Shown: positions 3,693 through 49,549 of the stretch, in pieces
Position numbering within the stretch: the stretch's first letter is position 1
How the letters are laid out: each line of letters begins with the position of its first letter
IMG/VR virus record: IMGVR_UViG_3300029258_005088
Direction: 5' to 3' (one strand)
DNA from: a virus
DNA: 64,000 nucleotides
Notes under the pieces: generated by a model
Told to the model about the DNA's origin: nothing
The model's input: only the letters and a program-made list of their open reading frames with translations
The model's database searches: none
Program-made: the position numbers and the translations under genes

Positions 3693-3926
3693 TCATGGTA
3701 AGCCCGCGTTCTTGTGCATGTACCCGTCCATGTAGCCTTGATCGAATACGGATGCTTTCTTCGACATCTTCTTGGACTTCTTCTTTTTCTTTTTGTCCTT
3801 GGGATTCATCTTGCGCTTGTTGGCGGTGGCATAGAACACGCGCTTGCCTTCTTCCTCGCCGTAACGCTCCTGCATCTCTTTCATGACCTTGTCGCCACTG
3901 CCTTTGTAATATTCCTTGACCGGCAT
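3693..3926 (-). CDS. Small basic phage protein
   Basis: 77-aa ORF (MKEMQERYGEEEGKRVFYATANK) with a poly-Lys tract and a C-terminal GYMDGYMHKNA motif. Confidence 0.7.
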   Translation of the reverse strand: MPVKEYYKGSGDKVMKEMQERYGEEEGKRVFYATANKRKMNPKDKKKKKKSKKMSKKASVFDQGYMDGYMHKNAGLP

Positions 3927-5173
3927 TACACAACTCCCTCTCTAAGTTTGTTATCTTTATTTGCAATGGTCATTCCACTGGATAATGCCTTAAGCACCAG
4001 TTTAAACGCATTTCTATCTGTCAGGTACAGATACCTCATAGCGTCCGTCTTGGAGTGCTTCTTTCTAAGAGAATCATACTTATCCAGTGCCTTTCCGACC
4101 GCTGCGTATTCTTTCTTGTCAAAAGGTGACGGGATGCCCATGGATTTTGCTCTCTCATTGGACCTATGGAAAAGCCTTGCTCTACTCTGAGTCTTCCCTG
4201 GTTTTTCAGATTCCTGTAACCAAATCTTAGACGGACCTCCTAGACGGCTGAAATTTTCCGATCTGGTCATATTAGCGAAGTCTCCAACGAACTTCTTCCA
4301 GTTATCGTCTCCTTCCACCTTGGAGGCTATGTACTGTTTGTATTTATCTACCATATTGCCCCATTCCTCATTCAAAGAAGAGTCTGGGTATAGTGACTGT
4401 TTCACAGGACTGTCATTAGTTATTAAGGCAGTGTTCTTCTTAGGATCGGCCCAATAATTCATTATGCTCCTAAGTTCTTGATACGGCTGTGCCTTGTTCT
4501 TCATATCACTCTCTAACCAAGCCCTCTCTTTATCCGACGGCTCGGTCTTCCATGTCCGTCCATGGAATCGGGCGGCCCTTCTATAGTCTTCGTCTCCTAC
4601 CGGAAGCCCTTTCGCAAGATCGAACGCTGGATACTTGACGTCTGGTCCATCTATATCCGGATTGTGTCCTACAGTATAGGCAGGTGCGCGGCTAACATAC
4701 TTTGGAGGCCTTGTGTCTATCCAATGTCCGGTTCTTCCCTTCCAATTCAGATGACCAAAGTCTTTCATTGCTTTCAGCAGTGCCGGATGACAACCTCCTC
4801 CAAGGTTGCAGGCGTCAATATTCAAAGCATAGTCACCCTTCGAGGGCACTGCCCTGCTGACGTGATTCATGATTGTTGAATTTACTAAGTCCTTGTTGTC
4901 TACAGAGTAGGACGACCTTCCGCCACCATGCCCGTGTATACCTACCGTGGGAAGGCCTTTTACCGACCTAAATTGAGATGGGTCATCCTTAAGTCTAGCG
5001 TCGAATGCGTTATCCGGTCTACTGGGAGAATATGCCGTCGTGTATTTCTCGTTAATAGGGGTTGGTCTCCTTATATTATACTTCCAGGCGCTTTTGGCTT
5101 TTGACTGGTTATCTCCGGCTCTCTTGTTCATATAGCCGTCCTGGTAGCCTGTTCTATAGGACTTATCGGTCAT
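3926..5173 (-). CDS. Hypothetical virion-type protein, possible clan CD (caspase/C80-like) cysteine peptidase
   Basis: 415 aa; N-terminal YRTGYQDGYMNKRA motif; VGIHGHG ... NIDACNLG resembles the His-Gly / Ala-Cys dyad of clan CD; visibly AT-richer than its neighbours. Confidence 0.55.
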   Translation of the reverse strand: MTDKSYRTGYQDGYMNKRAGDNQSKAKSAWKYNIRRPTPINEKYTTAYSPSRPDNAFDARLKDDPSQFRSVKGLPTVGIHGHGGGRSSYSVDNKDLVNSTIMNHVSRAVPSKGDYALNIDACNLGGGCHPALLKAMKDFGHLNWKGRTGHWIDTRPPKYVSRAPAYTVGHNPDIDGPDVKYPAFDLAKGLPVGDEDYRRAARFHGRTWKTEPSDKERAWLESDMKNKAQPYQELRSIMNYWADPKKNTALITNDSPVKQSLYPDSSLNEEWGNMVDKYKQYIASKVEGDDNWKKFVGDFANMTRSENFSRLGGPSKIWLQESEKPGKTQSRARLFHRSNERAKSMGIPSPFDKKEYAAVGKALDKYDSLRKKHSKTDAMRYLYLTDRNAFKLVLKALSSGMTIANKDNKLREGVV

Positions 5174-7222
5174 TCACAGCACTCCCTTGGTCGCTCTCTG
5201 CAGAGATATTCGTTTTCCGCTCTCGAAGAGGGGCTTGACCTTGTCCAGCCTGGTCCCTGTCTGGCGGGCATACTGGCTGTTTCTGAAAGATTGTCTGAGG
5301 CGCTCGGCGTTTTCCGCCGTGGGATTGACCATGAGAGCGTTCACGGCGTTATGGCCCTGTTGGAACTCCTTGAGATTGTCTCCCAGTGCATAGGCATGGA
5401 TCTTGAGCCAGTTCTGCATCATGGGGTTGAGTTTGCGCCAGTTCGGGTTCCAGGCATCGAGCTGTGTCGGGACGATTTTCTCGAGGTGGTGCTTGGTCGC
5501 CGCCCAATCCTCTTTGGTCTTGATGGTGCCTTTGCCGCTGCGGAGCTGTTTGAATCTGTTGTTCCCCCAGATCTTGGAAAGCTTGGAGGTGTTGGCCGGA
5601 CTCATGTAATGCCCGGTACCGATCGTGGGATAAGGCTCCTTGACGCCTTCGGCATTGGTGACGTGCTTGGCGGTAGGGCTGAAACCCTCGGCCTTGCTGA
5701 GCCACGGGTGTATGGCTTCATGGGCCTTGTCTCCGGCAGTCTTGGACGCCATTCTCGTAGAAGGATCTTTATTTACGAGCCCCAGGAAATCTTCTGCCAT
5801 ATCCCATAATAAGGCTTCCCATTCTTTACCCTTCCCTTCCCTCTCCATTATGCTGCGCAATGCCCGTAGATCAAAAGAATCATCAACCATAGGCTTCAGT
5901 TCACGTTTTATCTTTCTGTCCGGAGACGTCGCCCACTGGAGAAATGCAAAGGCTTTCTTCTTATCGCTGACGTCTACTCCCATGTGACTTGCGAGTGCCT
6001 TGAGATTACCTAATCTTGCTTCTCTTTCTATCTGCCGCATGGTGTAGGGAGCGGTGTGTCTCTTACTTCGAGCCTCTATGAACTTTCCTTTTTCATCCGT
6101 ATCCTGCACCATCTCGCTCATCTTATCGTGAGCCCACGTGTCCGCACTAAGGTGTCTCTTGTTTCTAGCCGCATTCTCCCTTACGACATCTTGTGCCGTT
6201 CCCTTTCCTTCGCCCTTAAGCGGGTACCATTTTCTGGCATGCTGAAGTACGTGTCGATACTCATGAGGAAGGAGTCGAGCCGTATGAGGCCTTATCCAAA
6301 TATCTGGGATGCGTTTACCAGGAGAGTATATGAACCCTCCTCCGCTTTTGTCGGGAGCGTCCTCATTTCTAAGAATCTTGTACGGAAAAGGCCTGTCCAA
6401 TGCCTTGTCATCCAGCCTCATGGCAAACCTATTCTTATACCCTTCTTTCTTCCTATACTCTCTGGCCTGCTCAAGGGACTTCTTGAAGGCTTCTGGACTA
6501 GGATACGTACTGCTTATTACTCTCCTAGGCGTATCCACTCCTGAGACAATAGGCTTTACGACAGGGACGGCTTTCTTAGAAATTTCTTTACTAGCATCTG
6601 CAGGTACCTCTCCCTTGTCTCCGGCAGTCTTCGCTATGATCTTGCCGTCCTTCAGCTCGTAAGGAGCCCATACCTGGCCTTCTACATAGTTGCCCGTCAG
6701 CCTGGGCAGCATGTCGAGCTTGCCTGCTTTCCTAAGCTCCACCAAGGTCATCAGCGTCTTGACCTCCTCACTGAGATTGCTCTTGTTGTGTCGCTCTCTA
6801 CGGAGATAATCGAAGGAGTCGCCGGGCGAAAACGTGGAAGCCTGCAGAAGCTCTTCGTCTATAGGATATACCTGGGTCGACTTGATATCGTGACCCCATG
6901 CCTTCTTCTGCTTGTCGGTACGGAAATACAAAGGATGCTTCAACTGTACCTTGTCGCCGAGTTTCTTGACGGCCTCCTCTCGTAGCGCCTTTTCAAGTCG
7001 AACACGGTCCTGCTTGTACCGATCGGTGTTCTTGTCTGGGGTATGCTCTTTATACCACTGCAGAACCTGCTCCTGCTCCTCTGGAGGCATATCGAGGAAA
7101 TTTCCGGGAAGCTTGCCTCCACGACCATAGTGATATCCCTCGACCTTGGCAGTCTTGTCCATATACCCGTCGAGATATCCCGAGGATCCAGACAACAGAA
7201 CTGCTGTGGTTACCGACATCAT
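5174..7222 (-). CDS. Polyvalent protein: unknown domain + HExxH metallopeptidase + lysozyme-like domain
   Basis: 682 aa; LLPHEYRHVLQH zincin motif; C-terminal KAEGFSPTA...PTIGTGHY resembles the GH24 lysozyme EG...TIGxGH signature; domains separated by KTAGD. Confidence 0.7.
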   Translation of the reverse strand: MMSVTTAVLLSGSSGYLDGYMDKTAKVEGYHYGRGGKLPGNFLDMPPEEQEQVLQWYKEHTPDKNTDRYKQDRVRLEKALREEAVKKLGDKVQLKHPLYFRTDKQKKAWGHDIKSTQVYPIDEELLQASTFSPGDSFDYLRRERHNKSNLSEEVKTLMTLVELRKAGKLDMLPRLTGNYVEGQVWAPYELKDGKIIAKTAGDKGEVPADASKEISKKAVPVVKPIVSGVDTPRRVISSTYPSPEAFKKSLEQAREYRKKEGYKNRFAMRLDDKALDRPFPYKILRNEDAPDKSGGGFIYSPGKRIPDIWIRPHTARLLPHEYRHVLQHARKWYPLKGEGKGTAQDVVRENAARNKRHLSADTWAHDKMSEMVQDTDEKGKFIEARSKRHTAPYTMRQIEREARLGNLKALASHMGVDVSDKKKAFAFLQWATSPDRKIKRELKPMVDDSFDLRALRSIMEREGKGKEWEALLWDMAEDFLGLVNKDPSTRMASKTAGDKAHEAIHPWLSKAEGFSPTAKHVTNAEGVKEPYPTIGTGHYMSPANTSKLSKIWGNNRFKQLRSGKGTIKTKEDWAATKHHLEKIVPTQLDAWNPNWRKLNPMMQNWLKIHAYALGDNLKEFQQGHNAVNALMVNPTAENAERLRQSFRNSQYARQTGTRLDKVKPLFESGKRISLQRATKGVL
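5725..5743. repeat. 19-bp direct repeat copy 1 (ccttgtctccggcagtctt; encodes KTAGDK on the minus strand)
   Basis: Exact match to 6613-6631. Confidence 0.9.
6613..6631. repeat. 19-bp direct repeat copy 2
   Basis: Exact match to 5725-5743; the pair brackets the metallopeptidase domain. Confidence 0.9.
7148..7222. repeat. 75-bp repeat copy 1 (encodes MMSVTTAVLLSGSSGYLDGYMDKTA)
   Basis: 70/75 identical to 8206-8280 by manual alignment. Confidence 0.9.
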
Positions 7223-8280
7223 ACCTTCCCTTTGTGTTTGCCGGGCTGCTGGTCCCTAGCCATAAGACTGCCCTCATCGATGAGGTCCTGCATCAGCTCA
7301 CGTTCCTCTGGCGCCAGGGCCTTGAGAGCCTTCTCTGCGTCCATGGTCTCACGCAGCTTGTCGTACTTCTTGATGAGTGGGTAGATCTTCTTGTAGTACT
7401 CGTCGTAGAACTTGAGGTAGCCGGCGTCATCTTCCTTGGCCTTGGACCTGCCGTACTCGTTGTCGCTGTATCCGTAGTTCCGCGCACGCTGGGCCTTGAG
7501 AAATTCGGCTGTGCGTGCAACCTGCGAAGCATTGAACTGCCCGGTACGCGTCTTTGCCTTGGCCGCATCCGTCTGGCGCTTTATGGAACTCTGTAGGTGG
7601 TCTGCTTTCGGAGCGTAGGGCATCATGCCCATGCTTATGAAGGTGCCTTCCCCACCCCGCATATTCTCTCGTCTGGTTTCTTCATGCTTCCTATCCGCAC
7701 CCTCGAAGGTGTTCGGATACTTGCGCAGTGCCGCACGCATCTTGGCATCGTTGAGCCTCCGATTAGCACTTCTGATGGCGGCCTCGGTTTCATACCTTTT
7801 GCCTGCTATTCCAGTGTGTATCGTCTTGGGGAACGTCTTGGGGTCCGGCAGTGCCGCACGCTCGGCTTCCAGCATCTTCAATCTCCTGGCATCGATCCGC
7901 CTCCCATGCGCACCTTGCTCCCTATTGGTCCACTCTATCATCTTTCGGAGACGTGCCTGATCTGCAGGGTTCTTCGCAGCCTTGAGCTGCTTCTCGTAGT
8001 CCTGGCGTATCTTATCGTAGCCCTGGTAATCCTTCTCCATGCCCTGCAACTGTTGATGAGTAACATTCTTTGGCTTTTCCGCCTTGATTGGCTTCGTCTT
8101 GGATGTAGTTGTCTGCGGAACCTTGATCTTACCGTAGTTCTTGGAGACTCCGCCTTCGACGGGCAGTGCTGCATGCTTGTTCAGCTCGCTCACGAATCTC
8201 ACGCCGGCAGTCTTGTCCATGTACCCGTCGAGATATCCCGAGGATCCAGACGACAAAAATGCTGTGGTCACCGACATCAT
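7219..8280 (-). CDS. Hypothetical basic, helical virion-type protein
   Basis: ORF 7219-8319; the start is placed at 8280 because the N-terminal 25 codons duplicate those of the next gene. Carries the GYLDGYMDKTA motif. Confidence 0.7.
   Translation of the reverse strand: MMSVTTAFLSSGSSGYLDGYMDKTAGVRFVSELNKHAALPVEGGVSKNYGKIKVPQTTTSKTKPIKAEKPKNVTHQQLQGMEKDYQGYDKIRQDYEKQLKAAKNPADQARLRKMIEWTNREQGAHGRRIDARRLKMLEAERAALPDPKTFPKTIHTGIAGKRYETEAAIRSANRRLNDAKMRAALRKYPNTFEGADRKHEETRRENMRGGEGTFISMGMMPYAPKADHLQSSIKRQTDAAKAKTRTGQFNASQVARTAEFLKAQRARNYGYSDNEYGRSKAKEDDAGYLKFYDEYYKKIYPLIKKYDKLRETMDAEKALKALAPEERELMQDLIDEGSLMARDQQPGKHKGKV
8206..8280. repeat. 75-bp repeat copy 2 (encodes MMSVTTAFLSSGSSGYLDGYMDKTA)
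   Basis: 70/75 identical to 7148-7222. Confidence 0.9.
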
Positions 8281-9887
8281 GCCTTCCCCATAAACTCCAG
8301 TGTTTTCTGAACCAGCCAAGACCGTCCGGAGGCTTCCTTCTTCATAGACGAGCCTTCTTCTTCGGGAGCTCCGTCCATTTCCTCGACCTCTTCCTCGCCT
8401 TCTTCGCGGAAGTCCTCATCGGTTGGATCCAGCTCCTCGAGCAGAGCTTCCAACTCCCCGACGTGTACCTTCTCCTCGTCGGCTATATCCTGAAGAATCT
8501 GTGCGGCACGCCTGTTCTCGGTGCTGTCGGCCACTGTTTCGTAGTGCTTGATCGCCTTCTGCTCTTCTATGATGGCGTCTCGAACGGCACGAGTCAGTTC
8601 ACGACGACCCAGCCTGGGAAGCTCCTTGACGTTCTCCATGCTACTCGCAGTCTTGGCTATATGTCTCGTCTCGAAAAGCACCTTGATCAGTGCCGCCCGT
8701 TTCTCCTGGCTTATCATAGGTGCCTCCAATTCTGAATACGCGTATTCACTTTTGCCTTCCTTACCTTCCATCTTCTCGAGGTCTGTGTAATAATCAGGCA
8801 TTTCTGTAAGATGATCCAACGCGATTTCTTCTGCAAGCTTCTGGTCTCTTGTATGTTCCTTTTCGACCTTCTTCCCCTTCTTGAGCTCTTCTTTGTCGAC
8901 ATCCTTCGGAGTTACGTTTTCTTTGTCGGCAAGGCCCGTAGTATCGGATCCGACTTTCTGCAGGGGCTTCAACACTTTCGAGGTATCCCCACGGGCGACC
9001 CACTTCTTGAACTGGTCCATGGTAAGTGCGGTGATGGAGCCGAGACCGTCCCAGCCTTTCTCGTAGTTGTCTAGATATCCCTTGCGGGCATCCTTCTCGT
9101 TGGTGAAGCCCAGCATGCACTTGTGCTCGTCGAAGCCTTTGCCTCCTTTGTTCGTCTGGTTGACGACGAACACCATCTCAGAGTCTACGTCCGGTCCGAT
9201 GAAGACGTCTACGTGATCGCCGTCGGCGTCGGACTTAGTCCGCTTGATGTAGCCGTAGTGATGCTTCATCAGGGTCTTCCATTCCGTACCGTCCGGGGAT
9301 TTGCCTTTACGATACTGGCCCTTTAGATTCTCGATGGTGATGTCCATACCATGCAGGCGGGTATGACCCTTGCGATAATTACCTGCTTCGGCCTGTTCCT
9401 TGGACTTCGGCTGAACCGGCGTGCCCTTGATCTTTAGGGAAGCTTCTTTTTCACCCGGCTCCTGCGAAGGGGCTCCATATATCTCGGCCAGTTGTAGCTT
9501 TCTCACCTCCTCGTTACTTAGATAGTTGCCCTCGTCATCGATGGGATGATATAAGTCCTCTCCGCTATTCAACTGCTCGGTCTCGAACTCGGTCAGATAA
9601 CCACGCCTCATTTCCCACAATTTCTTTTCTAGGTACTTACCCAGTGCGTCCTCTTCTTCCGTACCTCCTGTGCCATAAGACGAAGGTATCGCCGCATTTA
9701 TTTTTGTATACAGCCTCAGTCTTTGTCCTGGAGTGAGTTCTTCCCAGTGTGCTTCTTCCAGCTCATTCTGGGCTATTCCTGGTACTGTCTGTGTGGCTCC
9801 TTCGTCTACCACAGCGTCTCGGGCCTCCTTCTGCTGCTTCGCCTCCTTCCACGAAAGGATCATATTCGTAAAATCTGTTCTAGTCAT
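8277..9887 (-). CDS. Polyvalent protein: inorganic pyrophosphatase-type domain + DUF5661-like domain + ferritin/rubrerythrin-like domain
   Basis: GNYRKGH..LHGMDITIEN..HHYGYIKRT..DGDHVDVF..DEHKCMLGF (PPase domain of phage polyvalent proteins); EKEHT..AEEIALDHL..PDYY; EEQKAIKHY...DEEKVHVGEL di-iron ExxH. Start at 9887 chosen for the GAGG/AGGA RBS (ORF track start 9953). Confidence 0.8.
   Translation of the reverse strand: MTRTDFTNMILSWKEAKQQKEARDAVVDEGATQTVPGIAQNELEEAHWEELTPGQRLRLYTKINAAIPSSYGTGGTEEEDALGKYLEKKLWEMRRGYLTEFETEQLNSGEDLYHPIDDEGNYLSNEEVRKLQLAEIYGAPSQEPGEKEASLKIKGTPVQPKSKEQAEAGNYRKGHTRLHGMDITIENLKGQYRKGKSPDGTEWKTLMKHHYGYIKRTKSDADGDHVDVFIGPDVDSEMVFVVNQTNKGGKGFDEHKCMLGFTNEKDARKGYLDNYEKGWDGLGSITALTMDQFKKWVARGDTSKVLKPLQKVGSDTTGLADKENVTPKDVDKEELKKGKKVEKEHTRDQKLAEEIALDHLTEMPDYYTDLEKMEGKEGKSEYAYSELEAPMISQEKRAALIKVLFETRHIAKTASSMENVKELPRLGRRELTRAVRDAIIEEQKAIKHYETVADSTENRRAAQILQDIADEEKVHVGELEALLEELDPTDEDFREEGEEEVEEMDGAPEEEGSSMKKEASGRSWLVQKTLEFMGKA
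8733..8748. promoter_or_regulatory. Perfect 16-bp palindrome TGAATACGCGTATTCA (intragenic copy)
   Basis: Identical to the copies at 28400 and 51199. Confidence 0.55.
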
Positions 9888-12800
9888 TCGTATTCCTCTC
9901 TGACCTATGCGTGTAACCGTCCATATACCCGTGCGAGGCGTATTTCTGTCCACTAGGAAGTGATCGGTTGTCCACTACCAAAGGAAGCTCCTCTGAAAGC
10001 ATGTCAATGAACTTAATCTTCTTATCCGGAGTCAGTGTGTCGTAGTATTCAAGGAACTGCCTGGCACCGTGCTTATAAGGACGGTCTCCTTCGAAGAACT
10101 CCGTCAGTGCCTTTTTCGCCTCTGCCTTATTCCTGGCTCTACCTCCCTTGTTGTACCACCACGCTTTGATATCTCCTAGCCGTACCTCTCTCTCCTTATC
10201 GTCGATGAGGAAATATGCTACGTCGGACTGGCGGTCACTCCATTTGCTATCTACTATGAGTTTTCCATCGGCGTCTTTAACCCGCTCTTTCGTCTTGGGG
10301 TCCGTTTTAAATACGGTCCTTGTCGGGGTCATGTCAGGTTCGAACTCTTTCATATAGGCCATACTTCTCTTGAGTATATCCGGATGCCTTGCGTGTCCTA
10401 GGTTTTTGTTCAAACCAACCGTCTGATAAAAGCGAGGGTATTGTTTGTCCCCTACCTCGGGTATCTGGAAATTATGCCTGCTCTCGTGGATTATGGAATG
10501 ACCTAGGTCGGACACGTCTTTCTTTCCTCTAGCTCCTACGGTCATAGTAGGATGAACGCTCTCTACAGGACCGCTTTTCAAACCGCCCCCCTCCGGATAC
10601 ACGAAATCACTTTTGGTTCCTGCATTATGCTGGGCTCCGTACCACATCTTAGGGTCGAACTTCATCGGAATATACCTTTGAGGAAATCTAGTGGGCATGT
10701 CGATGCGCTCGACCCGCATGTTCGGAACCATGCCCGTGGCCTTCTGGTAGGCCAAGGCATCCTGAACGGACTTGTCTAGATTGCTGGGCTCTCCTGGCTT
10801 GTACACGCCTTGGTGATACCATCCACCGTACTGGTGGTGAAGAGGGAAGTACGTATCTACCTTTCCCTTGTTTTTACCCTTGTCCTCGCCCTTCCAGCCC
10901 CATTCGGCCATCTCCCAGGCTTTTTTATTTCTCTCGGCCCTTGCATTGAACTCCTTCTGCTTGGCTGCCTGAGCCGCCATCATCTGCTTCTTGATGGCCT
11001 CTATCTGCTTCTGATACGCACCTATCCTGTCTTGGTATCCCTTACCCATGTATTTCATCTGGTACTTATCCGTGGCAGGTGCCTTGGTGTCTACGTCAAC
11101 GGTCTTGACGGGAGGAGTTAATACAGGGTTGTTCACGGCCTTCTTGGCAGGTGTCTTGGAAGCTTGTTCGGCAATCGAAGGAACAGCGGGAGCCGCTCCG
11201 GAACTAGCCTCCTTCTGCTGTTTCTTCTTCTGACGTTCTTGCCATTCCTCGTACTTCTTCGGATTGTCCTTGAAGTACTGCAGCATATCGCCGCATGCAA
11301 CTTTCTGGACCTTGCCCGGAGGTCTTATCATCAGAGGGTACGGTCTATTGCGTTCCTCGTCCATAGGCATGATCCCGGACTTCTCGTCACCGGGAAGGAA
11401 CCCGTGCTTCCTGTAAAGGGATATCAGAGCTGCCAGACGGGCTTCGTATTCCTCGTCGTCGAAGTTCTCGTGCTCCTGCAGGTTCTCGTCCAGCTCGAAC
11501 GGCCCGGCTCTGAGAGCCAGGGTCTTCTTCTTGTTGTCTTTGACGATCTGTTTCAAAAGCTTGTCGGCAAAGCCCTTTCCTCGAAAATGAGGATCCGTGT
11601 GGATGTCTCCGACCACGCTGTAGTCGCCGTTGTCCTTCACGGTTGCATAGGATGCATCCACTCCCTTGTCGGTTACGAAATACTCCTTGACCGGTCCGTC
11701 CCCGTGAGTGGATACCTTGGCCTTCTTCTGCATGTCGCCACAGGCCACTTTCTCGTTGTCTATGAGATCCCAGGCGTCGTCCTTGGACATACCTTTCTCC
11801 TGAAGATCCCACGCTCTACGTATCCTGTCCTTTGCAGCGGAAGTCTTCACAGAGATGTCTACGTCCGGACTCGCCGCTGTAGCCGTATGCTCTCCCTCGT
11901 CTCTCTCCTTGAACCGAAACTCTTCGGATTCCGACAACTTCCTAAGTAGACGTACCAGACGAGCCCGCTTCTTGGGATCGTCCTCGAAGATGTGATAGTC
12001 CCAGTCCCTTCCTTCCGGATGAGGTCTTCCGTAAAAATCAGCTCTTCCCCTAGAGCCCGTCAGTTCTGCCTTACGGATCAGACGCTTCTTGAGGTCTGCC
12101 TTCTTCTGCATATTACCCGTATTCTTGTAGACCTTCTTCGCTATGTCATCCCAGATCTCTCTGCAGTGCTGGTCCTTGATGCACGTGATCTGCAGCTCCA
12201 TGCCCAGATGCTCTCTGCACCACTTCTTGATGGCGCGTCGGGCCACGCCGTCGTTGTCTCCGGCCACTCGAGCGGTGAATATCTTGATCTTCTTGCCCCG
12301 GCCGATATAACGCTTCACGCGGTCGACCATCTTCTGGATGGGCGCTCCGATGACGTCCGGACCCTTCCAGCCGTCGTATTTGGCCAGAGTACCGTCGAGA
12401 TCCACGCCGATCCACTCCTCGTCGGAAGCCTCCTTGTCCATCCCCAGAGGATCTCCGTAGTCCATCGTAAGCTCGGTATCTTCCGGAATGTCCCGCAATG
12501 CCTTGAAATAGCAACCATCGGGAGCGGGGTCGAATACGACGTTTGGATCCGATGCGTGGTTGGTGTAGCGTGCTCCGATCGTGCGATGCAGCTCCCTGTC
12601 CAGTGCGAGTGCGAACGACTCTCCCCGTTTTACGGGCTTGGTGACGAACGCGCCTTTTCCCTCTATGTCGGAATCCCTTATCTCTATGGGATCCTCGTCT
12701 GGCTGGGGAATGAGGTCGTCTGCATACTCCGAGTTTTGCCTATGCTCTTCCGCACTCGTTCCGCTCTCCTGCAGGTAGGTCTCGAAATCTGAACCCGTCT

Positions 12801-13730: not shown

Positions 13731-13739
13731 ATTGATCCT

Positions 13740-14795: not shown

Positions 14796-14798
14796 GCT

Positions 14799-17700
14799 CT
14801 AATCCTCGACTACTCTTATGGGGTCGTCTATCGTTATCTCGCCTCTGCTGAACGCCATCATGGCCTCCTGCATCGACTTGAATATCCTGGTCTGCCCTTT
14901 CTTCGGCGGCTTCGTCGCGAAGTACAGGCCCTGAAGATACTCGTTCGACGGGGTATAAGCGGGCTTGCCGAATCTGGACGAGATCAGATTCTTCTCTGGC
15001 ATCATCAGCTCATTCGCCTGGTCCACTGCCTTCTGTGATACCGGTACAGTAAAACTAGCAGTATCGCCATCGAAATCCATAGCGAACGGACCAACTATGG
15101 TAGGACTTACCTGAATGGTCTTGCCCTTTGTGAGGACCGGCGTGAACGCCATGTTCGAGTACTTGTGCAGCGTAGGCGCTCTGTTGACCAATACAGGACG
15201 CTTCTTGATGACGGATTGCAAGGCTTTGTACGCCGGAGGGCTCTTGGCTTCCACGGCCTTTGCAGCCTGTGTCGCCGGATATCCCTTGCCTACCATCTCC
15301 CTTACCACGAAATCGCCGTATAGATTCCATGCCAGCTTCTCGGGCATGCCTATCTGGTTAAGCTTCAAGGAGGGGTTTGGAGCTACGACGCCCAGACCGG
15401 ACACGTCTATGTTGGTTCCTATGACGCGGCGCTGAACGAAGCCGAACTTGGGAGATCCCTTGCCGAAGATCTGCTTGAGCATACCGCCTACGTTCTTCTG
15501 CTGGAGCTGTTCCTGGTCCGGATCGGTCATGCCCACCAGAGTGTTGTAGGACTTCCACACGTTTCCCCATGCCTCGGACCGGATGTCCTTGGGCATGCCG
15601 TCGGTATCCTTGTAGTCCTGTATGTTCTCCAGAAGGGTCTTGTAGAGATAGTTCGGATCGGCAACCATCGTCATGTCGCTCTGTCTGGATATCGGGCGGA
15701 ACCTCGGAGGCAGTACGGGGACGCGGGTCATCAGGAAGTCTTCCGGCTTGACGTCGTGTTTCTCCATGGCGTCGATATACCGGAACAACTTCACGGCGTC
15801 GTCTCTCTTGGACTTGGCTCCGTGCTTGATCTGCTCCAGAGTGCGCTGCTTCAACGAAGGCATGTTCACCCTGCTCAGCATGTAGGACAACGCCTCGGAT
15901 CCACTCCTGCCCTCCACCTCGGTGTTTCCGGCGACCATGTCGTCGAATTCCTTCTGCTTCATGCCGAGTATGCGTCGGAGGGGTTCGGACATGATGGGGT
16001 TCGGCATCGGAGCCGGGAGCTTGATGTAAGACCACTTGTCTCCGTTGCCCATGCTCCCCGTGGCCTCTGGATCGAACAGGCCGCCGGGTATGGGTCGGAG
16101 GTTCTTGGCGTCGTAGGTCGACGGGTTCTTGATCTCACGGGCACCGGTCAGTGCCTCCGCCTGATTGTTGGTCATGGCGAATACGCTGTCCTTGTCCTTG
16201 TCCTCGTGCAGGTTGATGCCGGCCGCTCGTATAAGGCTCTTGAACTTCTGATAGACCAATGGAGTATCGGGCTGCGTCGGAGTCTCGCCCAGCTTGAGCT
16301 GTCTCCAGAAATTGCTGTTCTTCTGTCCCTTGATGATCTTGAGATCCTTGAGAACCTGGTCGGCGCCATGGGCCTGCAGAGCCTGTATCTCCATATCTCC
16401 GAGATGCTTGGCTCCTTCCTTTCCGCCGCGTGCCGGTTGATCCTCCGCGGTATACCTGGAAGTGCCTCTGGACTTGCCCTTTCCTTCCGCGGTATGCTGG
16501 AGCTTGTAGACGTAGGTCATGCCGGTCAGAATGCCCGGTATGGTCTTGCCCGTCTTCGGATCGTACAGATCTTCGTTGGCCTTGACGTTGTTCTTGTACG
16601 CCTCTCGGGCGGCGAACTTCTTCATGTCCTCGTCCAGGAACCCCGGCAGCACGTACGGCTTTCCGGTCTTTTCCGCTACCTTGCCCAGAACCACTTCCGA
16701 TTTCTGCGCTGGGTTGGTACGGCTGTGGATGCCGAGTGGCGAGAATATGACGTCGATCGGCCGTCCCTTGGAATCCCTAGGCATGTCTTCGTCCCTGATT
16801 ACCTCGGCGACCACGCCTTTGTTGCCGAAGCGCCCGGAAAGCTTGTCGCCCTCTTCCATGGGGACGTTGGCCCTGACGTTGATGTTGTAGCCTTTCTTGC
16901 TGGGCTCGGCATCGGTGACCACGGCCGGGAACTCGTGCTTCCATACGACGCTGTCGTCCGTACGGGTCTTGCGTCCCATCGACTGGGGCGTGGGCTCTCG
17001 CTCTTTCACGGCCAATACCATGGGATCGCCGTAGTTCACCACGGTACCGGTCTTCACGACCCCGTCGTCTCCTATGGTGCCGAGCTGGGACTTGCTGAAT
17101 CTGGATGGGTACAGGGCCTGGAACTTGGCTTTGTCCGTGAACACGTCTTTGTCCTTCTCGAACTTTGTCGTGTACATGTGCTCTGACGTCAGCTTTTCCT
17201 TTGCGGCGGACTGGGATATGACGACGGCGTCCTCGAACACCTTTCCGTCGTAGTTCAGATAGGCCACGCGAAGGTTCGTTCCCAGTGCGGATACGCCATC
17301 CGGATCCGTATAGTTCGAAGTCGCAAGTACTGCGCCTTTTCCCACCTTCTGGCCAGCCTTTACCTTGGGAGTGTTCCTGATGAAGGTCTTGCGGGCATAC
17401 GGGTGGTTGTCGTAAAGGTCTATGGTCTCTTCCGTTCCGTCGTCGTAGGACATCTTGAGGTGATCCTTGTAGACCGCCTTGACGACGCCCGGTTTGGAAG
17501 CTTTCACCGCGCCCATGTAAACGCCCATGCGCTCCTCCTCGGAACCTCCCTTGGGATTGGAAGTCCTTACGAGAGGGGCCTGACGACCAACCAGAGGAAG
17601 TGCCTGTCTGGCGAACTTGTTCCCCATCAGCAGGCGCATGCCTTTGACGCCCGACTTCAACGGAACCAGGTTGGCGGTATCCGAGAACATCTCGTCGCCG

Positions 17701-19205
17701 TCGGGAAGCAGGTAGTCCAGGTCTTTCTTGTGGACGTACTTCATGTCGCGTCCCTTGGACAGAGTCGGTACGTACGAGTCTCCGGGCTCCGACGATCCGG
17801 GCATGCCTATGTTGGCTTCCGTGGCGTCTCTCACGCCCACCCATTCCTTCTTGCCGGTCTTCGCATTGATGAGCTGGGTGTAAAGCTGCCTGTCGGGACC
17901 GCGTCTGACGTTTCTGGCCAGGCGCATGTCGAGACCTATGCGGAGCGACTCCGGGGCCACCACGGGATCGATGTAGCCGAGGTACGACGGTTGTACGTTT
18001 CTGGACTCCTTCGGCGCGGAGTCTATGCTGGGAAGGGCACCCTCTCCGAGGCGGCTGACTCGAACGTTCTGGTCGTAGATGTCGGAGGGATTGATCTCTT
18101 CGATTGCCTGAGCCACTCCCGTGGCAGTGAACAGATGGCTGACGTGCGCGTCCAGAAGGGAAGGCGGTATCTTCTTCATGTCCTGACCGCGGCCGGTAAG
18201 CTTCCACAGAACCTTGCGCAGGGCGCCGCCCTGATCGTTCTTGATCTTCTCCGCCAGGAAATCGGAGACGTCGTATATGTCCTGGTACGCAAGGCTGTCG
18301 CGGCTATCTGTATCGGCTTTGCCTTTGCCAACGTTCAGTATCTTGGTCGTAGCCGCCATGATGGCTTCCGGAGTGGCGTTCATGTACTCGGTTCCCAGCG
18401 TCCGCCGAGTTACCCTGGGACTGAGCTCGGTCCTCGAGAACTCGCCTATGACGTTGGCCTGGAATTCCGGATCGTAATCGGTCTCGGAAGCCTGCTTGTC
18501 CATGTTCTTGAACCCGACTGCCTTGATGAGTTCCTCTCTGGCCTCGTCCCTCTGGGGACGGAACTGCTTCAGGAAATTGACTGCGTAGGGGCTGTTCTGC
18601 AGAGCTTTGTTCTTCTCCGCGAGCTCCTTGCCCCACGTCTTCTCTATGCGTTCGTGAGGAATGCCCATGGCTCTGAGCACGGGGTACATCGGAACCTTGC
18701 GTCCCTTGTAGCGCATGAAGAAATGCCCGCTGCCCGGTTCCATGTATACTCTGAAGCTCGATCCGGTACGGGGTTTGGCATTGAACTGGGCCTCGATGTT
18801 TCCGTCGTCGGTAACCCTGGTGTATACACCGGGCACGAGACGAAACTGCTTCGCTATGGTGTATTCGACGCCCTTGCGGATGTAGGTCCCTCTGTCCGTA
18901 AGGTGAGGGACGTTCATCAGGCGCTTCTGGTTCGTCCTTCCTACTACGGTGCCCGTGGCGTTGTCCACGAGCTCGTAATTACCGACGAGCTTGTCCGATA
19001 GGGATTGTCCGGCCAGTATGGCCTTCTTCTGATCCTTGAGGGAGAAGCTGTCCTTGCCGGAGAACTTTGGATTTACCACGCGCAGAGTGAACTGCTCGTT
19101 AACTGCCGGGGGCGACTCCTGAACCGCTTTCAGGACTTTGTCCCGGAGGTCCTGGCGAACCCTGGGATAGTCCGTATAATCGAGAAGTTGTTGTTCGTTC
19201 ATCAC
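14799..19205 (-). CDS. rpoB: DNA-directed RNA polymerase beta subunit fused to the N-terminal (catalytic) half of beta'
   Basis: 1468 aa. beta motifs: PHLTDRGTYIRKGVEY, RLLMGNKFARQALPL, FEDAVVIS, GDKLSGRFGNKGVV, YVYKLQH, LGDMEIQAL. beta' motifs: GGLFD, PVLPPRFRP, NRAPTLHK, FAMDFDGDT (metal-binding DFDGD). Confidence 0.95.
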   Translation of the reverse strand: MMNEQQLLDYTDYPRVRQDLRDKVLKAVQESPPAVNEQFTLRVVNPKFSGKDSFSLKDQKKAILAGQSLSDKLVGNYELVDNATGTVVGRTNQKRLMNVPHLTDRGTYIRKGVEYTIAKQFRLVPGVYTRVTDDGNIEAQFNAKPRTGSSFRVYMEPGSGHFFMRYKGRKVPMYPVLRAMGIPHERIEKTWGKELAEKNKALQNSPYAVNFLKQFRPQRDEAREELIKAVGFKNMDKQASETDYDPEFQANVIGEFSRTELSPRVTRRTLGTEYMNATPEAIMAATTKILNVGKGKADTDSRDSLAYQDIYDVSDFLAEKIKNDQGGALRKVLWKLTGRGQDMKKIPPSLLDAHVSHLFTATGVAQAIEEINPSDIYDQNVRVSRLGEGALPSIDSAPKESRNVQPSYLGYIDPVVAPESLRIGLDMRLARNVRRGPDRQLYTQLINAKTGKKEWVGVRDATEANIGMPGSSEPGDSYVPTLSKGRDMKYVHKKDLDYLLPDGDEMFSDTANLVPLKSGVKGMRLLMGNKFARQALPLVGRQAPLVRTSNPKGGSEEERMGVYMGAVKASKPGVVKAVYKDHLKMSYDDGTEETIDLYDNHPYARKTFIRNTPKVKAGQKVGKGAVLATSNYTDPDGVSALGTNLRVAYLNYDGKVFEDAVVISQSAAKEKLTSEHMYTTKFEKDKDVFTDKAKFQALYPSRFSKSQLGTIGDDGVVKTGTVVNYGDPMVLAVKEREPTPQSMGRKTRTDDSVVWKHEFPAVVTDAEPSKKGYNINVRANVPMEEGDKLSGRFGNKGVVAEVIRDEDMPRDSKGRPIDVIFSPLGIHSRTNPAQKSEVVLGKVAEKTGKPYVLPGFLDEDMKKFAAREAYKNNVKANEDLYDPKTGKTIPGILTGMTYVYKLQHTAEGKGKSRGTSRYTAEDQPARGGKEGAKHLGDMEIQALQAHGADQVLKDLKIIKGQKNSNFWRQLKLGETPTQPDTPLVYQKFKSLIRAAGINLHEDKDKDSVFAMTNNQAEALTGAREIKNPSTYDAKNLRPIPGGLFDPEATGSMGNGDKWSYIKLPAPMPNPIMSEPLRRILGMKQKEFDDMVAGNTEVEGRSGSEALSYMLSRVNMPSLKQRTLEQIKHGAKSKRDDAVKLFRYIDAMEKHDVKPEDFLMTRVPVLPPRFRPISRQSDMTMVADPNYLYKTLLENIQDYKDTDGMPKDIRSEAWGNVWKSYNTLVGMTDPDQEQLQQKNVGGMLKQIFGKGSPKFGFVQRRVIGTNIDVSGLGVVAPNPSLKLNQIGMPEKLAWNLYGDFVVREMVGKGYPATQAAKAVEAKSPPAYKALQSVIKKRPVLVNRAPTLHKYSNMAFTPVLTKGKTIQVSPTIVGPFAMDFDGDTASFTVPVSQKAVDQANELMMPEKNLISSRFGKPAYTPSNEYLQGLYFATKPPKKGQTRIFKSMQEAMMAFSRGEITIDDPIRVVED

Positions 19206-19208
19206 TCA

Positions 19209-21081: not shown

Positions 21082-21277
21082 CCATCGGAGACGGACTCGT
21101 GATCTTCGAGTGAGTCAGGCCGGCACCCGCTCCGAGAAGGATGGGAGCGACCAGAAAGTAAGGAGCCAGGCTCTCTGCGACTTCCTTGCCCGTCCTTACC
21201 GTTTCGGCACCCCCTCTGAGGAGAGATGGGTATGCTTCCTTGTGCATGTATCCGTCTAGATATGCCTGTTTGTTCAT
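20933..21277 (-). CDS. Small membrane protein
   Basis: 114 aa; MNKQAYLDGYMHKEA start; TM APYFLVAPILLGAGAGL. Confidence 0.75.
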   Translation of the reverse strand: MNKQAYLDGYMHKEAYPSLLRGGAETVRTGKEVAESLAPYFLVAPILLGAGAGLTHSKITSPSPMDEEAVQKALEAAELEEFIAELERRRKQEEIEGQQALAEKENPSARTLHI

Positions 21278-22083: not shown

Positions 22084-22808
22084 CTGTTACCTACCATGTT
22101 CAACCGCATCGGCTTTTGCTGGGCCTGAAGTTGGTTTATCTGCGCCTGGAGCTTGGCTATCTCCGACTGTGACGCGCCCTGGTTCTTTCGTCTGAAAAGC
22201 GTGGCCAGCAGGAATACGAGAGCCCCTCCCCCGAGAAGCCACGGACCGTACTTGGTGACGTACCCGCCTATCTTCTTGTTCATCTCCGCCTTGATCTTCG
22301 GTATGGCCTCTTTCTGTATGATCTCGCGGGCCTTGGGACTGATGGAGTAATACTTCTTCGCCGTCGTGTAATCGCCTCTGGCAGCCTCTTCGCGTATCTT
22401 CTGCTCCACGCCTGCCTGCATGGTGTCGTACACCGACTGAGGCAGTCTCTTGGTGAGCTCGTCCATGGGCTCGGGCTTGTACGGATCCAGAAGCCATCCG
22501 TAGTCTTTGTTGTTCTTCAACGCCCACTTGGTCATCGTCCTGTCGAAGTACCCTTGATGCGGACTGACCCAGTTGGGATCCGGACCCTGACGGACTACCG
22601 GAGCCATTTCCTTGACCTTGTCGATTCCCCGGGAAGCCACGTCCATGGCTTTGTCCGCCCAGGACTGCTTGGCGGCGTTCCACTTGTCGATGTACTTTCC
22701 GAGATCTACCTCCGGAACGTCTCCCTCGGGAGGCTTCGGAGGCGTCGGAGCCGCAGGACCTGCCGCGCTCTTGCAGATATACCCTTGTATGAAAGCTGTC
22801 GTATTCAT
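22080..22808 (-). CDS. Membrane-anchored protein
   Basis: 242 aa; FIQGYICKSAA N-terminus; TM WLLGGGALVFLLATLF. Confidence 0.75.
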   Translation of the reverse strand: MNTTAFIQGYICKSAAGPAAPTPPKPPEGDVPEVDLGKYIDKWNAAKQSWADKAMDVASRGIDKVKEMAPVVRQGPDPNWVSPHQGYFDRTMTKWALKNNKDYGWLLDPYKPEPMDELTKRLPQSVYDTMQAGVEQKIREEAARGDYTTAKKYYSISPKAREIIQKEAIPKIKAEMNKKIGGYVTKYGPWLLGGGALVFLLATLFRRKNQGASQSEIAKLQAQINQLQAQQKPMRLNMVGNR

Positions 22809-25174
22809 CCTACCATGTTGTTCGGTGCTGGCATTGGAGTCGGGGACGCCATCGCCGGACCCGCCGCAGTGGGCTGCTGCAACGTAGCCGTTGGTTGTTG
22901 CGGGCTCTGATTCACGGCTGGGTTCTGTGCCGATGCCATCTGCTGAGCCTGTCCGACCTGTTCGTTCTGCATGTCCATGCGCTTGTTGTTCATGTCGATG
23001 CCTGCCTGTTGCCCGCTGAGATTCATCTCGGCTTGCTTCTTCTTGACGTCTGCATCTGCCTTGGACTGCTCTAGAGCGGCCTGCGCCTTCATCTCGGTGA
23101 CCTTGGCCTGATGCCTAAAAACTTCGGAGGGATCCGGTCCGGATTGTTGCTGAGGCTGTTCCGGAATCATGGCTCCGGGATCCTGTGGAAGGGCCGCATG
23201 CTTGTCGGTCAGGCACTCCCACCACATCGGAGTCTCGTTTCCGGAAAACTCTTTGAACATGTTGTTACTTTTCCTCGGAGCTTTCGGTGAAAATAGAGGG
23301 CTCGTTCGTGGCGAGGGAGTGGGAGTAGGATCTGGCTTGGAAAACTCCTGCCATTTCCTGTTCTCTTCCGGGGTCGACACAAGGCTGCGTGCCACGGCGT
23401 TTCCTTGTAGCGTGGCCCTATCCTGCAATGCCTTCGGAGCGGCGCCTGGATGGGCGGTTACCACGGGAGGTACCCCACCTGCCTTGGTCCTGGCCGCTGT
23501 TCGTTTTCTGAGCTTGTCGAGAACGCCTTGCGTGGTGTAGGGCTCGGAGGCATGCTTATCGGTCAAGCACTCCCACCACATCGGAGTATCGTCGCCGGCA
23601 AATTCTTTCCACTCATCGTTGTTGTCGGGTATAAGCTCTCTAACCATGGCCTCGCCTTCCTTTCTTGCTTTGTCCTGCACAGCCTTTGGAGCGGCTCCCT
23701 TATTCTTGGTCACCTTGGGAGGTTCGTATGTCCCCATACGACCATGCATCATGGCGTTTACACTGCCTGGTTGTTCCCTCTGTATCTTGTCCCGCATAAG
23801 TCTCTTTTTCGTCTGATCCGCGAGGAGAGCCTCCACACCGGGAAACGGCTTTCTGTCTTTCCACAGCTTTCTCAAACCAAGCTTGCGTGCGAGATTTCTC
23901 AACTCTTTCTCGTCTCGGTACTTCGGATGCCAGCCGGCGTATCTCTTGGAGAACGGCACTCTGGACTCATTGGGGTCATTACCGCTTGGAGTCTCGAACC
24001 ACCCCTCGTAAAACTTGTTCATCTCGTACGGATCCTGTCCGTAATAATACCGTCTGGCCCTCTCCATGGTGTCTCTGTATTCGTCGGACAACGCCACTAG
24101 ATCTTCCCATGAATTGGTGTTCCTGGCGGCTGTTTCGAAATCTGGAAGCTTACCTACCTTGGACTCTCCGAACAAGGAGAATCCCTCTCCGGTGAACGGC
24201 AGCCAGTTACGCTTGTCCCTGGAGTATTCGTATCCGGGAACGCCTCTTTCCGCATGCTCCACCGTATCGTTCAGGCGATTTTGTAGGAGCCTGAGCTTCT
24301 TGTCTACGGACTTGGTATTTCCCTTGCTTTTCCTGATCTTGGCCCTCTCAAGTTCCAATTCGGCCTTTCTCTTGACCAGGGCGGCTATGTCTTTCGTATA
24401 GGCGCCTTTGAGAGACGTGTTCATGTCGATTTCGTCCATGTCCTTACCAAAACCCGCCTTGGCGTTTTCAACCGTCTTGTCCACCCAGTTCTTCTCGGCT
24501 TCTCTGCGTGCCTTTCGAAGATATCCTCCGGCTTGTCTCTCCTCACCCTTTCTGTTGGTCGCGCTCGCGATCCGCTTCATCTCCGATACGGAGTTCATGT
24601 TGCCGATCTTCTGAGCTTCGGTCTCATTGGCGGAATTGTCGATATCCAAGACGTTTTGATAGTACATCTTCTTCTGCATGTCTATCCCTTTCGCCTCGCC
24701 TGCCGCCTTCGTGTTCTGGATGAACTCCTTGAACTTGCCCTTGGACCTGGCCTCGAACAGTGCTTCGTACGCCTTTGGGAGACCGATATCGAATACGTCC
24801 ATGACGAATGCCGCCAAACCACCGAGGAACGTTCCCATCAACGCTCCCTGAGCGCCACCCATGAGACCTCCGATCCCCGCTCCGAGAAGAGCGCCTGCAC
24901 CGCCGCTGAACCATTTTCTCTTGGTTTCGTCGGTCAGCATGCCGAGAAGCCAGTCCTTGTTGAGATCCGCGGCCGCCATGTCGAAATATTCCTGACGAAG
25001 CTGTGTGTACTGCTTCTTGAGCTCCGGGTGGTTCTGGGCGTAGACTCTGTACTCGTCGCCGACGAAGCCGGGAGATGCCGGAATGAACGCTCTCTGAAAC
25101 GCGTTTAGCTTCCCTGGAGCGGCAGTCTTGAAAAGGTATCCGTCTTCGTATGCTGTAAACCGTGATGCGTCCAT
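22805..25174 (-). CDS. Large virion-type protein with glycine zipper, coiled coil and internal repeat
   Basis: 789 aa; AYEDGYLFKTAA N-terminus; GGAGALLGAGIGGLMGGAQGALMG; duplicated AAPKAxQD...EFxGxxTPMWWECLTDKHA. Confidence 0.75.
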   Translation of the reverse strand: MDASRFTAYEDGYLFKTAAPGKLNAFQRAFIPASPGFVGDEYRVYAQNHPELKKQYTQLRQEYFDMAAADLNKDWLLGMLTDETKRKWFSGGAGALLGAGIGGLMGGAQGALMGTFLGGLAAFVMDVFDIGLPKAYEALFEARSKGKFKEFIQNTKAAGEAKGIDMQKKMYYQNVLDIDNSANETEAQKIGNMNSVSEMKRIASATNRKGEERQAGGYLRKARREAEKNWVDKTVENAKAGFGKDMDEIDMNTSLKGAYTKDIAALVKRKAELELERAKIRKSKGNTKSVDKKLRLLQNRLNDTVEHAERGVPGYEYSRDKRNWLPFTGEGFSLFGESKVGKLPDFETAARNTNSWEDLVALSDEYRDTMERARRYYYGQDPYEMNKFYEGWFETPSGNDPNESRVPFSKRYAGWHPKYRDEKELRNLARKLGLRKLWKDRKPFPGVEALLADQTKKRLMRDKIQREQPGSVNAMMHGRMGTYEPPKVTKNKGAAPKAVQDKARKEGEAMVRELIPDNNDEWKEFAGDDTPMWWECLTDKHASEPYTTQGVLDKLRKRTAARTKAGGVPPVVTAHPGAAPKALQDRATLQGNAVARSLVSTPEENRKWQEFSKPDPTPTPSPRTSPLFSPKAPRKSNNMFKEFSGNETPMWWECLTDKHAALPQDPGAMIPEQPQQQSGPDPSEVFRHQAKVTEMKAQAALEQSKADADVKKKQAEMNLSGQQAGIDMNNKRMDMQNEQVGQAQQMASAQNPAVNQSPQQPTATLQQPTAAGPAMASPTPMPAPNNMVG
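23196..23605. repeat. Intragenic duplication (units ~23196-23251 and ~23550-23605) encoding EFxGxxTPMWWECLTDKHA
   Basis: Near-identical DNA and peptide seen in both copies. Confidence 0.8.
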
Positions 25175-49006: not shown

Positions 49007-49549
49007 CTAAGTTGCCGGAGCCTGTTTCTTGGCGCCGCCGGCAAGTATGCTCTTCAGGCCCTGGTACGAGGACGAGGCGGCATCCGCCACGTTTCCGCCG
49101 AGATCCTTGAATCCCTGTGTGCCTTCGGTGATTCCGAGCTGGCCGGCCATTCCGAGGGGAACGCCCAGAAGCATGGAAAGGATGATGGCTCTCTTGACGT
49201 TCAGAGGTTTGCCCCTCAACGCGTCGATTCCGAGACTACCCGCTCCGGTGGCGACTGCTCCGGTGGCGGCACCTGGCCAGAGCTGACCAAGCTGAGAGCC
49301 CAAAGCGGAGTAAGGACCCGGTTCTGGCGGAAGAGCGGGACCGCCTTCCTGCTGGGCATCGTACTGACGCTCCTGCTCTTCCTTCGACAGAGGCTTGTTT
49401 CCTCTGTTTTCGCCTCTAGGCGCGAAGGCACCATGGCGATTTTCCGAATCAGTGTCTCCCGGCTGTGCTTCTCCGGGGTCTCTGGCTTCCTTGCTGATGT
49501 AACCGAGCATGAAACCCTTGAAGGCGATTGGTGATACTGCTATCGACAT
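49007..49549 (-). CDS. Glycine-zipper virion-type protein
   Basis: 180 aa; FKGFMLGYISKEA N-terminus; GAATGAVATGAG and ILSMLLGVPLGMAG. Confidence 0.7.
   Translation of the reverse strand: MSIAVSPIAFKGFMLGYISKEARDPGEAQPGDTDSENRHGAFAPRGENRGNKPLSKEEQERQYDAQQEGGPALPPEPGPYSALGSQLGQLWPGAATGAVATGAGSLGIDALRGKPLNVKRAIILSMLLGVPLGMAGQLGITEGTQGFKDLGGNVADAASSSYQGLKSILAGGAKKQAPAT

Follow-up and report, generated by a model that had tools for sequence, protein, structure and literature searches.

The DNA analyzed here is a 64,000-nucleotide stretch (the window) of IMGVR_UViG_3300029258_005088, a record from an uncultured phage of about 200 kilobases (kb), and all real genes in it lie on the minus strand. 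Its subject is a short leader peptide that recurs in proteins encoded mostly around the genes for a portal protein and an RNA polymerase. The initial annotation had listed 12 such peptides and proposed that they form a capsid-targeting signal. All 12 are present at the genes named for them, each in a coding frame on the gene strand. The interval given for them, 3693 to 25174, holds 10 of the 12 copies; the remaining two (49484-49513 and 51652-81) fall outside it. Eight copies are N-terminal in their proteins, two are C-terminal (in the 77- and 1048-residue products) and two are internal.

Copies were scored with a position matrix, in which true copies reach at least 24 bits and background at most 16.6 bits; all those described here are on the minus strand. 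The copy nearest to the start of the window, GYMDGYMHKNA (3705..3737; 33.7 bits), lies at the C-terminus of a 77-residue open reading frame (ORF; 3693-3926), with the stop codon three residues on. It is followed by MTDKSYRTGYQDGYMNKRA (5117..5149; 26.9 bits), N-terminal in a 415-residue protein (3926-5173) with no Pfam or PHROG family. The peptide GYLDGYMDKTA occurs twice at 29.4 bits, at 7148..7180 in the N-terminus of a 682-residue protein (5174-7222) and at 8206..8238 in the N-terminus of a 366-residue ORF (7219-8319) whose start is probably the MMSV at 8280. A degenerate copy, GYMDGYTHRSE (9898..9930; 24.2 bits), is found at the C-terminus of a 1048-residue multi-domain protein with SET and GNAT domains (9880-13026), and MNNEAYIAGYMHKES (13686..13718; 30.8 bits) is N-terminal in a 235-residue protein (13023-13730) that was also retrieved, as P0087, by a profile search of 1.84 billion proteins. 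Further along, MNVGYMDGYLVKYA (14151..14192; 29.1 bits) lies in a 351-residue ORF (13740-14795), after AAGGAAGGA and an ATG at 14190-14192. This copy had been described as internal, and it is indeed inside the ORF, but the in-frame ATG before it has a good ribosome-binding site, making a nested start possible; the copy may thus begin a nested 146-residue product.

The window's best copy, the canonical leader MNKQAYLDGYMHKEA (21233..21277; 35.0 bits), starts a 114-residue protein (20933-21277) and forms the first row of profile alignment A2. Two more stand at the very start of their proteins: MNTTAFIQGYICKSA (22764..22808; 28.6 bits), which leads into an Ala/Pro-rich linker in a 242-residue protein (22080-22808), and MDASRFTAYEDGYLFKTA (25121..25174; 26.8 bits), in a 789-residue protein (22805-25174) encoded directly downstream of the portal gene. 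The last two copies are far from these. GFMLGYISKEA (49484..49516; 28.5 bits) is N-terminal in a 180-residue protein (49007-49549) outside the block of virion genes, and a similar N-terminal copy, GFQLGYLHKQA, is encoded by ORF 140573-141169 of a related contig (G001), in that contig's own remote leader cluster. The internal variant GYADGYQKTA (51652..51681), in a 395-residue protein (51223-52410), is shorter by one residue, and no ribosome-binding site precedes the in-frame Met near it.

The motif is non-random, far beyond chance expectation. The pattern [YF]xxGYxx[KR]x[AS] has 10 matches in the window, every one in minus-strand coding frames, and none in the three plus-strand frames; GYxDGY has seven matches in coding frames versus none in the plus-strand frames. 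Shuffling of residues within the window proteins gave an expectation of 0.05 strict matches against the 10 seen, with a maximum of 2 in any of 3000 shuffles. Counted with the matrix, the window contained 11 copies and the four viral contigs used as relatives (G001-G004) contained 3-4, 9, 2 and 5, respectively, all within coding-strand genes. A near-miss below the matrix threshold, the N-terminal Y-L-G-G-Y-Y-E-K-S-F of window gene 40290-40964, far from the virion block, was left uncounted.

The consensus is a 15-residue leader, M-N-K-x-A-[Y/F]-[L/I/M]-x-G-Y-[L/M]-x-K-x-[A/S], and in 62 of 85 distinct copies the initiator Met stands at a distance of exactly four residues upstream. In the same 85 copies the invariant Gly uses all four of its codons (39/20/17/9) and the invariant Tyr uses TAC 43 times and TAT 42 times. 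This free codon use for fixed residues argues that selection acts on the peptide and not on the DNA. The A-[Y/F]-x-x-G-Y part of the leader is probably helical, with a modest hydrophobic moment of 0.7. The 15 residues that follow the leader are enriched in Gly (1.7x), Ala (1.4x) and Pro (1.3x), a linker-like composition, and the residue directly after the leader's K-x-A is Gly, Ala or Ser in 48 of 92 cases (52%). A secretion signal was considered and rejected because the leader has no hydrophobic core.

A DNA-level repeat was likewise rejected, since synonymous sites vary among the copies. In a related proposal, the sequence would be kept for expression or recombination, either as an enhancer of translation initiation (AUG AAC AAA ...) or as a homology patch for cassette swapping. 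Near-identical DNA that includes the ribosome-binding site is indeed found at 7177/8235 in the window and at 27822/28500 in G004, and the genes concerned behave like swappable cassettes. However, most copies vary freely at synonymous sites while their amino acids are fixed, some copies are C-terminal or internal, and the motif is maintained over genomes spanning 39-55% G+C, all of which makes this proposal highly improbable.

The proteins that carry the leader had been called otherwise unrelated. This holds for all but one of the pairs: in BLAST comparisons of the tagged window proteins, which left out the 77- and 114-residue ORFs, no other pair matched at E<1e-4, whereas the 682- and 366-residue proteins are 89% identical over their first 27 residues and have nothing in common beyond them. 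Searches of PHROGs and Pfam found no family for most of the tagged proteins.

The leader is also present outside this phage. In the first relative found, with a polymerase identity of 48%, the peptide stands at the very start of genes that adjoin the polymerase, and a back-translated DNA pattern then led to three further viral contigs (159-165 kb, one complete) and to 33 metagenome stretches with the leader. With the leader region as query, a word-based protein search returned that query as its sole match. A 32-column profile made from 51 leaders gave 103 matches at E<=1e-3 among 1.84 billion protein representatives; 92 of these are N-terminal, and in 84 profile position 1 is residue 1. The matched proteins are 29-479 residues long, and 90 of them fell into 78 BLAST clusters once the leader had been removed. 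Most have no Pfam domain; the domains seen are Gly-zipper, LigT/2'-5' RNA ligase/Acb1-like, LysM, lysozyme, alpha/beta-hydrolase, DUF6496 and DUF5661, and the tagged proteins of the relatives include one with a NUDIX domain (G002). In these searches the GY leader appears specific to this clade of uncultured 160-200-kb phages. Two other viral contigs, L014 and L018 (41-42% polymerase identity), contain many short ORFs under translation table 11 with a fragmented polymerase match, pointing to stop-codon reassignment or numerous frameshifts.

The tagged genes had also been assigned to a virion module. Most of them do lie around the portal and RNA polymerase genes, and their virion status is judged from that position, but two tagged genes are outside the block. 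The block extends from about 380 to 27,060 and comprises the portal gene, two polymerase genes, the genes for an InPase protein and for the SET and GNAT protein, and many genes without a family match. The portal protein (25184..27061, minus strand; 625 residues) matches annotated portal gp204 of Salmonella phage Arash (tblastn E 4e-50) and is 47-64% identical to its counterparts in G001-G003 and 31% to that in G004. The larger polymerase gene (14799..19205, minus strand) encodes a multisubunit-type RNA polymerase protein of 1468 residues, without leader, in which beta is fused to the N-terminal part of beta' (Pfam Rpb2_6 4e-46, Rpb1_2 7e-21) and which is 30% identical to Arash gp206; the nearest deposited phages reach a polymerase identity of only 28-30%. 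The remaining part of beta' (379..2211, minus strand; 610 residues) matches Arash gp216, annotated as a beta' subunit (tblastn E 1.5e-54). In G002, G003 and G004 the open frames of the fused polymerase are 1904-2102 residues long versus 1468 in the window, with large insertions that are probably inteins, and the G004 frame is additionally broken by stop codons.

Also in the block are a multi-domain InPase - DUF5661 - rubrerythrin protein of 558 residues (8277..9887, minus strand; Pfam PF18823 2e-55, PF18905, PF02915), whose likely start codon, the ATG at 9885-9887, overlaps the stop of the 1048-residue gene, and a conserved protein (2796..3611, minus strand) that is made up mostly of Pro/Met-rich P-M-D-P-x-M-M repeats and is present in all five genomes. 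The InPase protein and the 1048-residue protein each carry several unrelated domains on one polypeptide, as polyvalent phage proteins do, and the SET and GNAT domains (Pfam) of the tagged window proteins are of polyvalent-protein types. Some ORF-finder calls overlap (20293-21081 with 20933-21277 and with 19209-20405); homology to G001 suggests later true starts at about 20955 for the 262-residue ORF and at an MMKKTA at about 20318 for the 398-residue ORF, which would then open with a mini-leader ending in K-x-A. A sugar-modification cluster upstream of the portal gene (28413-45519) encodes a class-V aminotransferase, mannosyltransferase-like and GT9-like proteins, and others.

Comparison with G001-G004 separates the tagged genes from their neighbors. 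The flanking portal, polymerase beta/beta' and several small neighboring proteins are 31-65% identical between the window and these contigs, whereas the tagged proteins of 415, 682, 366, 1048, 235, 242 and 789 residues have no detectable homologue in them, and the G001 homologue of the 351-residue ORF covers residues 1-195 only. In the window, tagged genes fill about 10 kb between beta and beta'; the G001 interval has none of them and is almost empty. By this comparison the tagged genes are hypervariable cassettes, apparently inserted between conserved anchors.

There are at least two ways in which such a peptide could act with no role in capsid targeting. It could be a docking or localization tag for a site other than the prohead: the portal or tail ejection apparatus, the virion RNA polymerase, or, as an amphipathic anchor, the host inner membrane after ejection. 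The tagged genes are neighbors of the portal and polymerase genes, hydrophobic or Gly-zipper segments are seen in several of their products, and N-terminal, C-terminal and tandem occurrence would suit a generic docking peptide. However, hydrophobic segments are only modestly commoner in tagged proteins (5/25) than in others (60/615), a weak enrichment; the hydrophobic moment is no more than the 0.7 given above; and the protease-type ending of the leader together with the parallel to phage T4 described below favors the prohead. We consider docking elsewhere improbable. The peptide could also be a leader for a modifying enzyme, acting for example on Tyr or Lys, or for a chaperone. Its Tyr and Lys are invariant, and the N-terminus of the T4 capsid protein is known to send proteins to GroEL (cited in PMC10052503). 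On the other side, no modifying enzyme consistently accompanies the tagged genes, which are separate from the glycosylation cluster at 28-45 kb and in the relatives occur away from it; we judge this second explanation very unlikely.

The leader consists of an aromatic element, A-[Y/F]-x-x-G-Y, and an ending, [L/M]-x-K-x-A; the two are separable, each being found on its own. The aromatic element occurs without K-x-A in the C-terminal copies of G001 and G002, in the first copy of tandem leaders and in MNKQAYMQGYLSTP of G001. The C-terminal copies occupy one syntenic position, in the 77-residue ORF of the window, the NUDIX protein of G002 and a G001 protein (ending AFISGYTSN); in these three genomes the gene just upstream of the repeat gene at 2796-3611 ends in a leader copy. 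The [L/M]-x-K-x-A ending occurs without GY at residues 198, 308 and 434 of the 1048-residue protein, beside its SET, PNK-like and GNAT matches. In the InPase protein, numbered from the GTG at 9953, K-x-A falls between the domains, at 169, 418, 434 and 539 versus domains at 186-319, 341-397 and 458-523, and the N-terminus has two further K-x-A sites (WKEA and QKEA). In all five genomes [L/M]-x-K-x-A closes the N-terminus of the 2796-3611 protein and YAPP comes next (FEPP in G004); the short N-termini of three untagged proteins (19209-20405, 21274-22083 and 50752-51174) also end in K-x-A. In the window's virion block [LM]-x-K-x-A is enriched, with 20 sites versus 7.1 expected (z 4.7), and there is no enrichment in the rest of the window. 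In G001 and G002, over-representation of K-x-A is greatest in the head-module proteins.

A candidate enzyme for cutting at such sites is encoded in the head module, which in the relatives lies downstream of beta' and includes an 863-residue protein with an intein directly after a conserved S-M-G-C. Its intein-free homologues include P0133 (483 residues), which is taken to belong to the window's phage; its contig has the same length (201,176 bp) as that of the window's 114-residue protein. Its structure was modeled from 75 homologues with a predicted local distance difference test (pLDDT) score of 86; an earlier protease model from 4 sequences (pLDDT 44) had been too poor for use. Residues 1-233 of P0133 match T4 gp21 (5jbl_A) with Z 10.8 (VIA) and a root-mean-square deviation of 3.1 A over 145/165 residues, far above other chains, and the next-best matches are the proteases of herpes simplex virus 1 (HSV-1) and Kaposi's sarcoma-associated herpesvirus (KSHV) at Z 4.8-4.9. 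His123 and Ser175 are invariant in the 75 homologues. On the basis of the model, the phage is thus predicted to encode a protease of the T4 gp21 head-protease fold. Sequence methods gave no such assignment: Pfam S77 (PF03420) found no protease match in the relatives, and searches of the PDB with three head-module proteins returned nothing useful. The intein-bearing protease genes are L035:14489-17080 (G001), L047:7211-9805 (G002) and L057:6192-8780 (G004), where S-M-G-C holds the invariant serine; the G003 gene is intein-free, like P0133.

A K-x-A site is also present in the major capsid protein (L035:11319-12299 in G001). Of 970 homologues, the 120 closest were examined and 97 could be anchored on the conserved N-arm; all 97 have [L/I/V]-x-K-x-A at residues ~26-28, 14 or 15 residues before the N-arm. 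Head proteins of Arash share the motif, the Arash capsid protein having L-V-K-E-A-G at 25-30. The conserved capsid N-terminus of about 28 residues reads M-I-D-P-x-V-R-A-x-N-E-x-V-I-N-G-L-T-S-x-D-P-x-L-Q-K-E-A, and within this putative propeptide the segment N-E-A-V-I-N-G-L (A-F-I-N-S-M in G002) has a leader-like pattern of A-hydrophobic-hydrophobic-polar-G-hydrophobic. The tag may therefore imitate a scaffold-binding helix of the capsid protein.

These observations raise the possibility that the peptide serves the head protease alone, as an extended site or propeptide, which might hold proteins inactive or unfolded until maturation but would have no targeting role, with entry into the head occurring by other means. 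In keeping with this, the same [LM]-x-K-x-A recurs in the capsid protein and at internal joints between domains, internal G-x-M-x-K-x-A sites partly resemble G-Y-M-x-K-x-A, and a protease modeled with the gp21 fold is present. It does not account for the conservation of A-[YF]-x-x-G-Y where K-x-A is missing, namely in the C-terminal copies of G001 and G002, the first tandem copies and the G001 peptide cited above. In addition, the eleven conserved residues upstream of P5 and their fixed distance to Met1 exceed what a site of the gp21 or herpesvirus type needs. A protease site with no targeting function is thus unlikely.

The reading that we favor, and to which we give slightly better than an even chance, is that the leader acts as a portable T4-type propeptide for capsid targeting, with a docking element and a cut-site ending. 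The aromatic A-[Y/F]-[L/I/M]-x-G-Y-[L/M] element would dock its protein onto the core of the assembling head or onto the inner surface of the capsid, the gp21-fold head protease would cut after the Ala of [L/M]-x-K-x-A, and the mature proteins, freed in the capsid, would be delivered with the DNA to the next host, provided that they are indeed in the virion. The original suggestion of a T4-like targeting signal fares well on several counts: the peptide is short and mostly N-terminal, its cargo is unrelated and variable, conservation is at the peptide level, the genes concerned lie mostly around the portal and virion-type RNA polymerase genes, the phage encodes a protease modeled with the gp21 fold, and the cut-site-like ending is consistent with it. 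In virions of Arash, the nearest cultured relative, mass spectrometry shows the homologous polymerase subunits and the portal to be abundant, with gp206 giving the most spectra and gp216 detected (PMC10585845), which is in keeping with this gene context. The suggestion fares less well on the polymerase subunits, which lack the leader.

Several other points also weigh against capsid targeting by a cleaved leader. Neither the portal nor the RNA polymerase subunits carry the leader. The polymerase lacks a leader, yet its homologues are packaged in Arash; therefore, the tag cannot be the sole route into the head. The two tagged genes at 49-52 kb adjoin GAF-like and receiver-like genes and not virion genes. 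The leader is absent from GenBank phages searched with tblastn, so that no cultured phage with it was found, and the GY leader is absent from Arash and 16 more distant polymerase-bearing loci; some distant polymerase loci show Y-x-M-x-K-x-A-like N-termini. Of the 20 [LM]-x-K-x-A sites in the window's virion block, about nine are the leaders themselves, and plain K-x-A, at 72 versus 66.5 expected, is not enriched there. The Foldseek E-value for gp21 is weak (0.14), and the fold call rests on the VIA Z of 10.8. Finally, conservation in the capsid protein extends over all of its 28 N-terminal residues; therefore, the invariance of its K-x-A is no proof of cutting.

A more specific version of this idea, which we put forward tentatively and as well short of even odds, is that A-[YF]-x-x-G-Y is a position-independent capsid cargo tag, usable at the N-terminus, at the C-terminus, internally or in tandem. 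It would mimic the capsid propeptide helix and bind the same core or scaffold partner, and K-x-A would be a separate release switch, cut after the alanine by the gp21-fold protease. If this were so, the injected protein sets of hundreds of uncultured phages would become readable from sequence, and the 15-mer would be usable for loading foreign proteins. If the targeting propeptide is real in its more general form, a 15-residue sequence marks packaged, and probably injected, proteins across a clade of uncultured large phages, the T4 targeting principle reaches a distant lineage with another tag and another protease rule (after Ala), and foreign proteins could be loaded into capsids with a compact, testable tag. 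The tagged proteins are mostly uncharacterized and phage-specific; if injected, they would be the first to act in the host, where anti-defense functions are expected.

A literature search found no paper on this leader or on the K-x-A rule. Several known systems share parts of its design. The maturation and release sites of herpesvirus assemblin are cut after Ala, and the substrates of this enzyme are the scaffold and the protease itself. The assemblins share the protease fold class (at the Z of 4.8-4.9 given above) and the proposed P1 Ala followed by a small residue, but they are not known to have a shared leader on unrelated cargo. In the giant phages SPN3US, phiKZ and 201phi2-1, head and ejection proteins are packaged with a virion RNA polymerase and processed by a gp21-related protease (PMC5694885, PMC10052503). 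Their propeptides end at a three-residue cut motif, A-x-E in SPN3US (PMC10052503), and are suspected of targeting proteins to the prohead. Unlike the leader, these propeptides are mostly 110-250 residues long and do not have one short motif in common, and cleavage follows A-x-E; some 80% of the head proteins of SPN3US escape cleavage altogether (PMC5694885, PMC10052503).

Encapsulin cargo peptides (PMC10960027) resemble the leader in that each is a short peptide at a protein end, tethered through a flexible linker to cargo of unrelated kinds; they load this cargo into a shell with the HK97 fold. Some leader copies are C-terminal, the sequence after the leader is linker-like and rich in Gly, Ala and Pro, and a rubrerythrin/EncFtn-like domain is encoded in the same gene block. 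Encapsulin tags, however, are mostly C-terminal, are kept and bind the luminal face of the shell protein directly, whereas the leader is mostly at residue 1 with a probable cut site, which argues against encapsulin-like retention of the N-terminal copies.

The protease gp21 of T4 cuts at the motif L/I-x-E. The capsid targeting sequence that it processes is carried by IPI-III, Alt and gp24, which are internal proteins (Mullaney & Black 1996; reviews PMC3012670, PMC5694885). The T4 internal proteins are diverse, and only the capsid targeting sequence is conserved among them (PMC3012670; PMC5694885). As in T4, the leader is an N-terminal peptide of 10-20 residues common to diverse, fast-evolving proteins, and it ends at a site, here putative, for a gp21-type protease, for which a gp21-fold candidate (Z 10.8) is present. 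In contrast to T4, the leader sequence is unrelated, the proposed cut is after the Ala of K-x-A and not after the Glu of L/I-x-E, and copies are also C-terminal, internal or in tandem. The phages themselves, which have a multisubunit RNA polymerase of the virion type, are not T4-like in the genes compared. For the T4 peptide, packaging, sufficiency and removal have been demonstrated, whereas the leader is known from sequence alone. Among known systems, the T4 capsid targeting sequence comes closest; the leader appears to share its logic and its protease fold while differing in sequence, in the proposed cutting rule and in positional flexibility.

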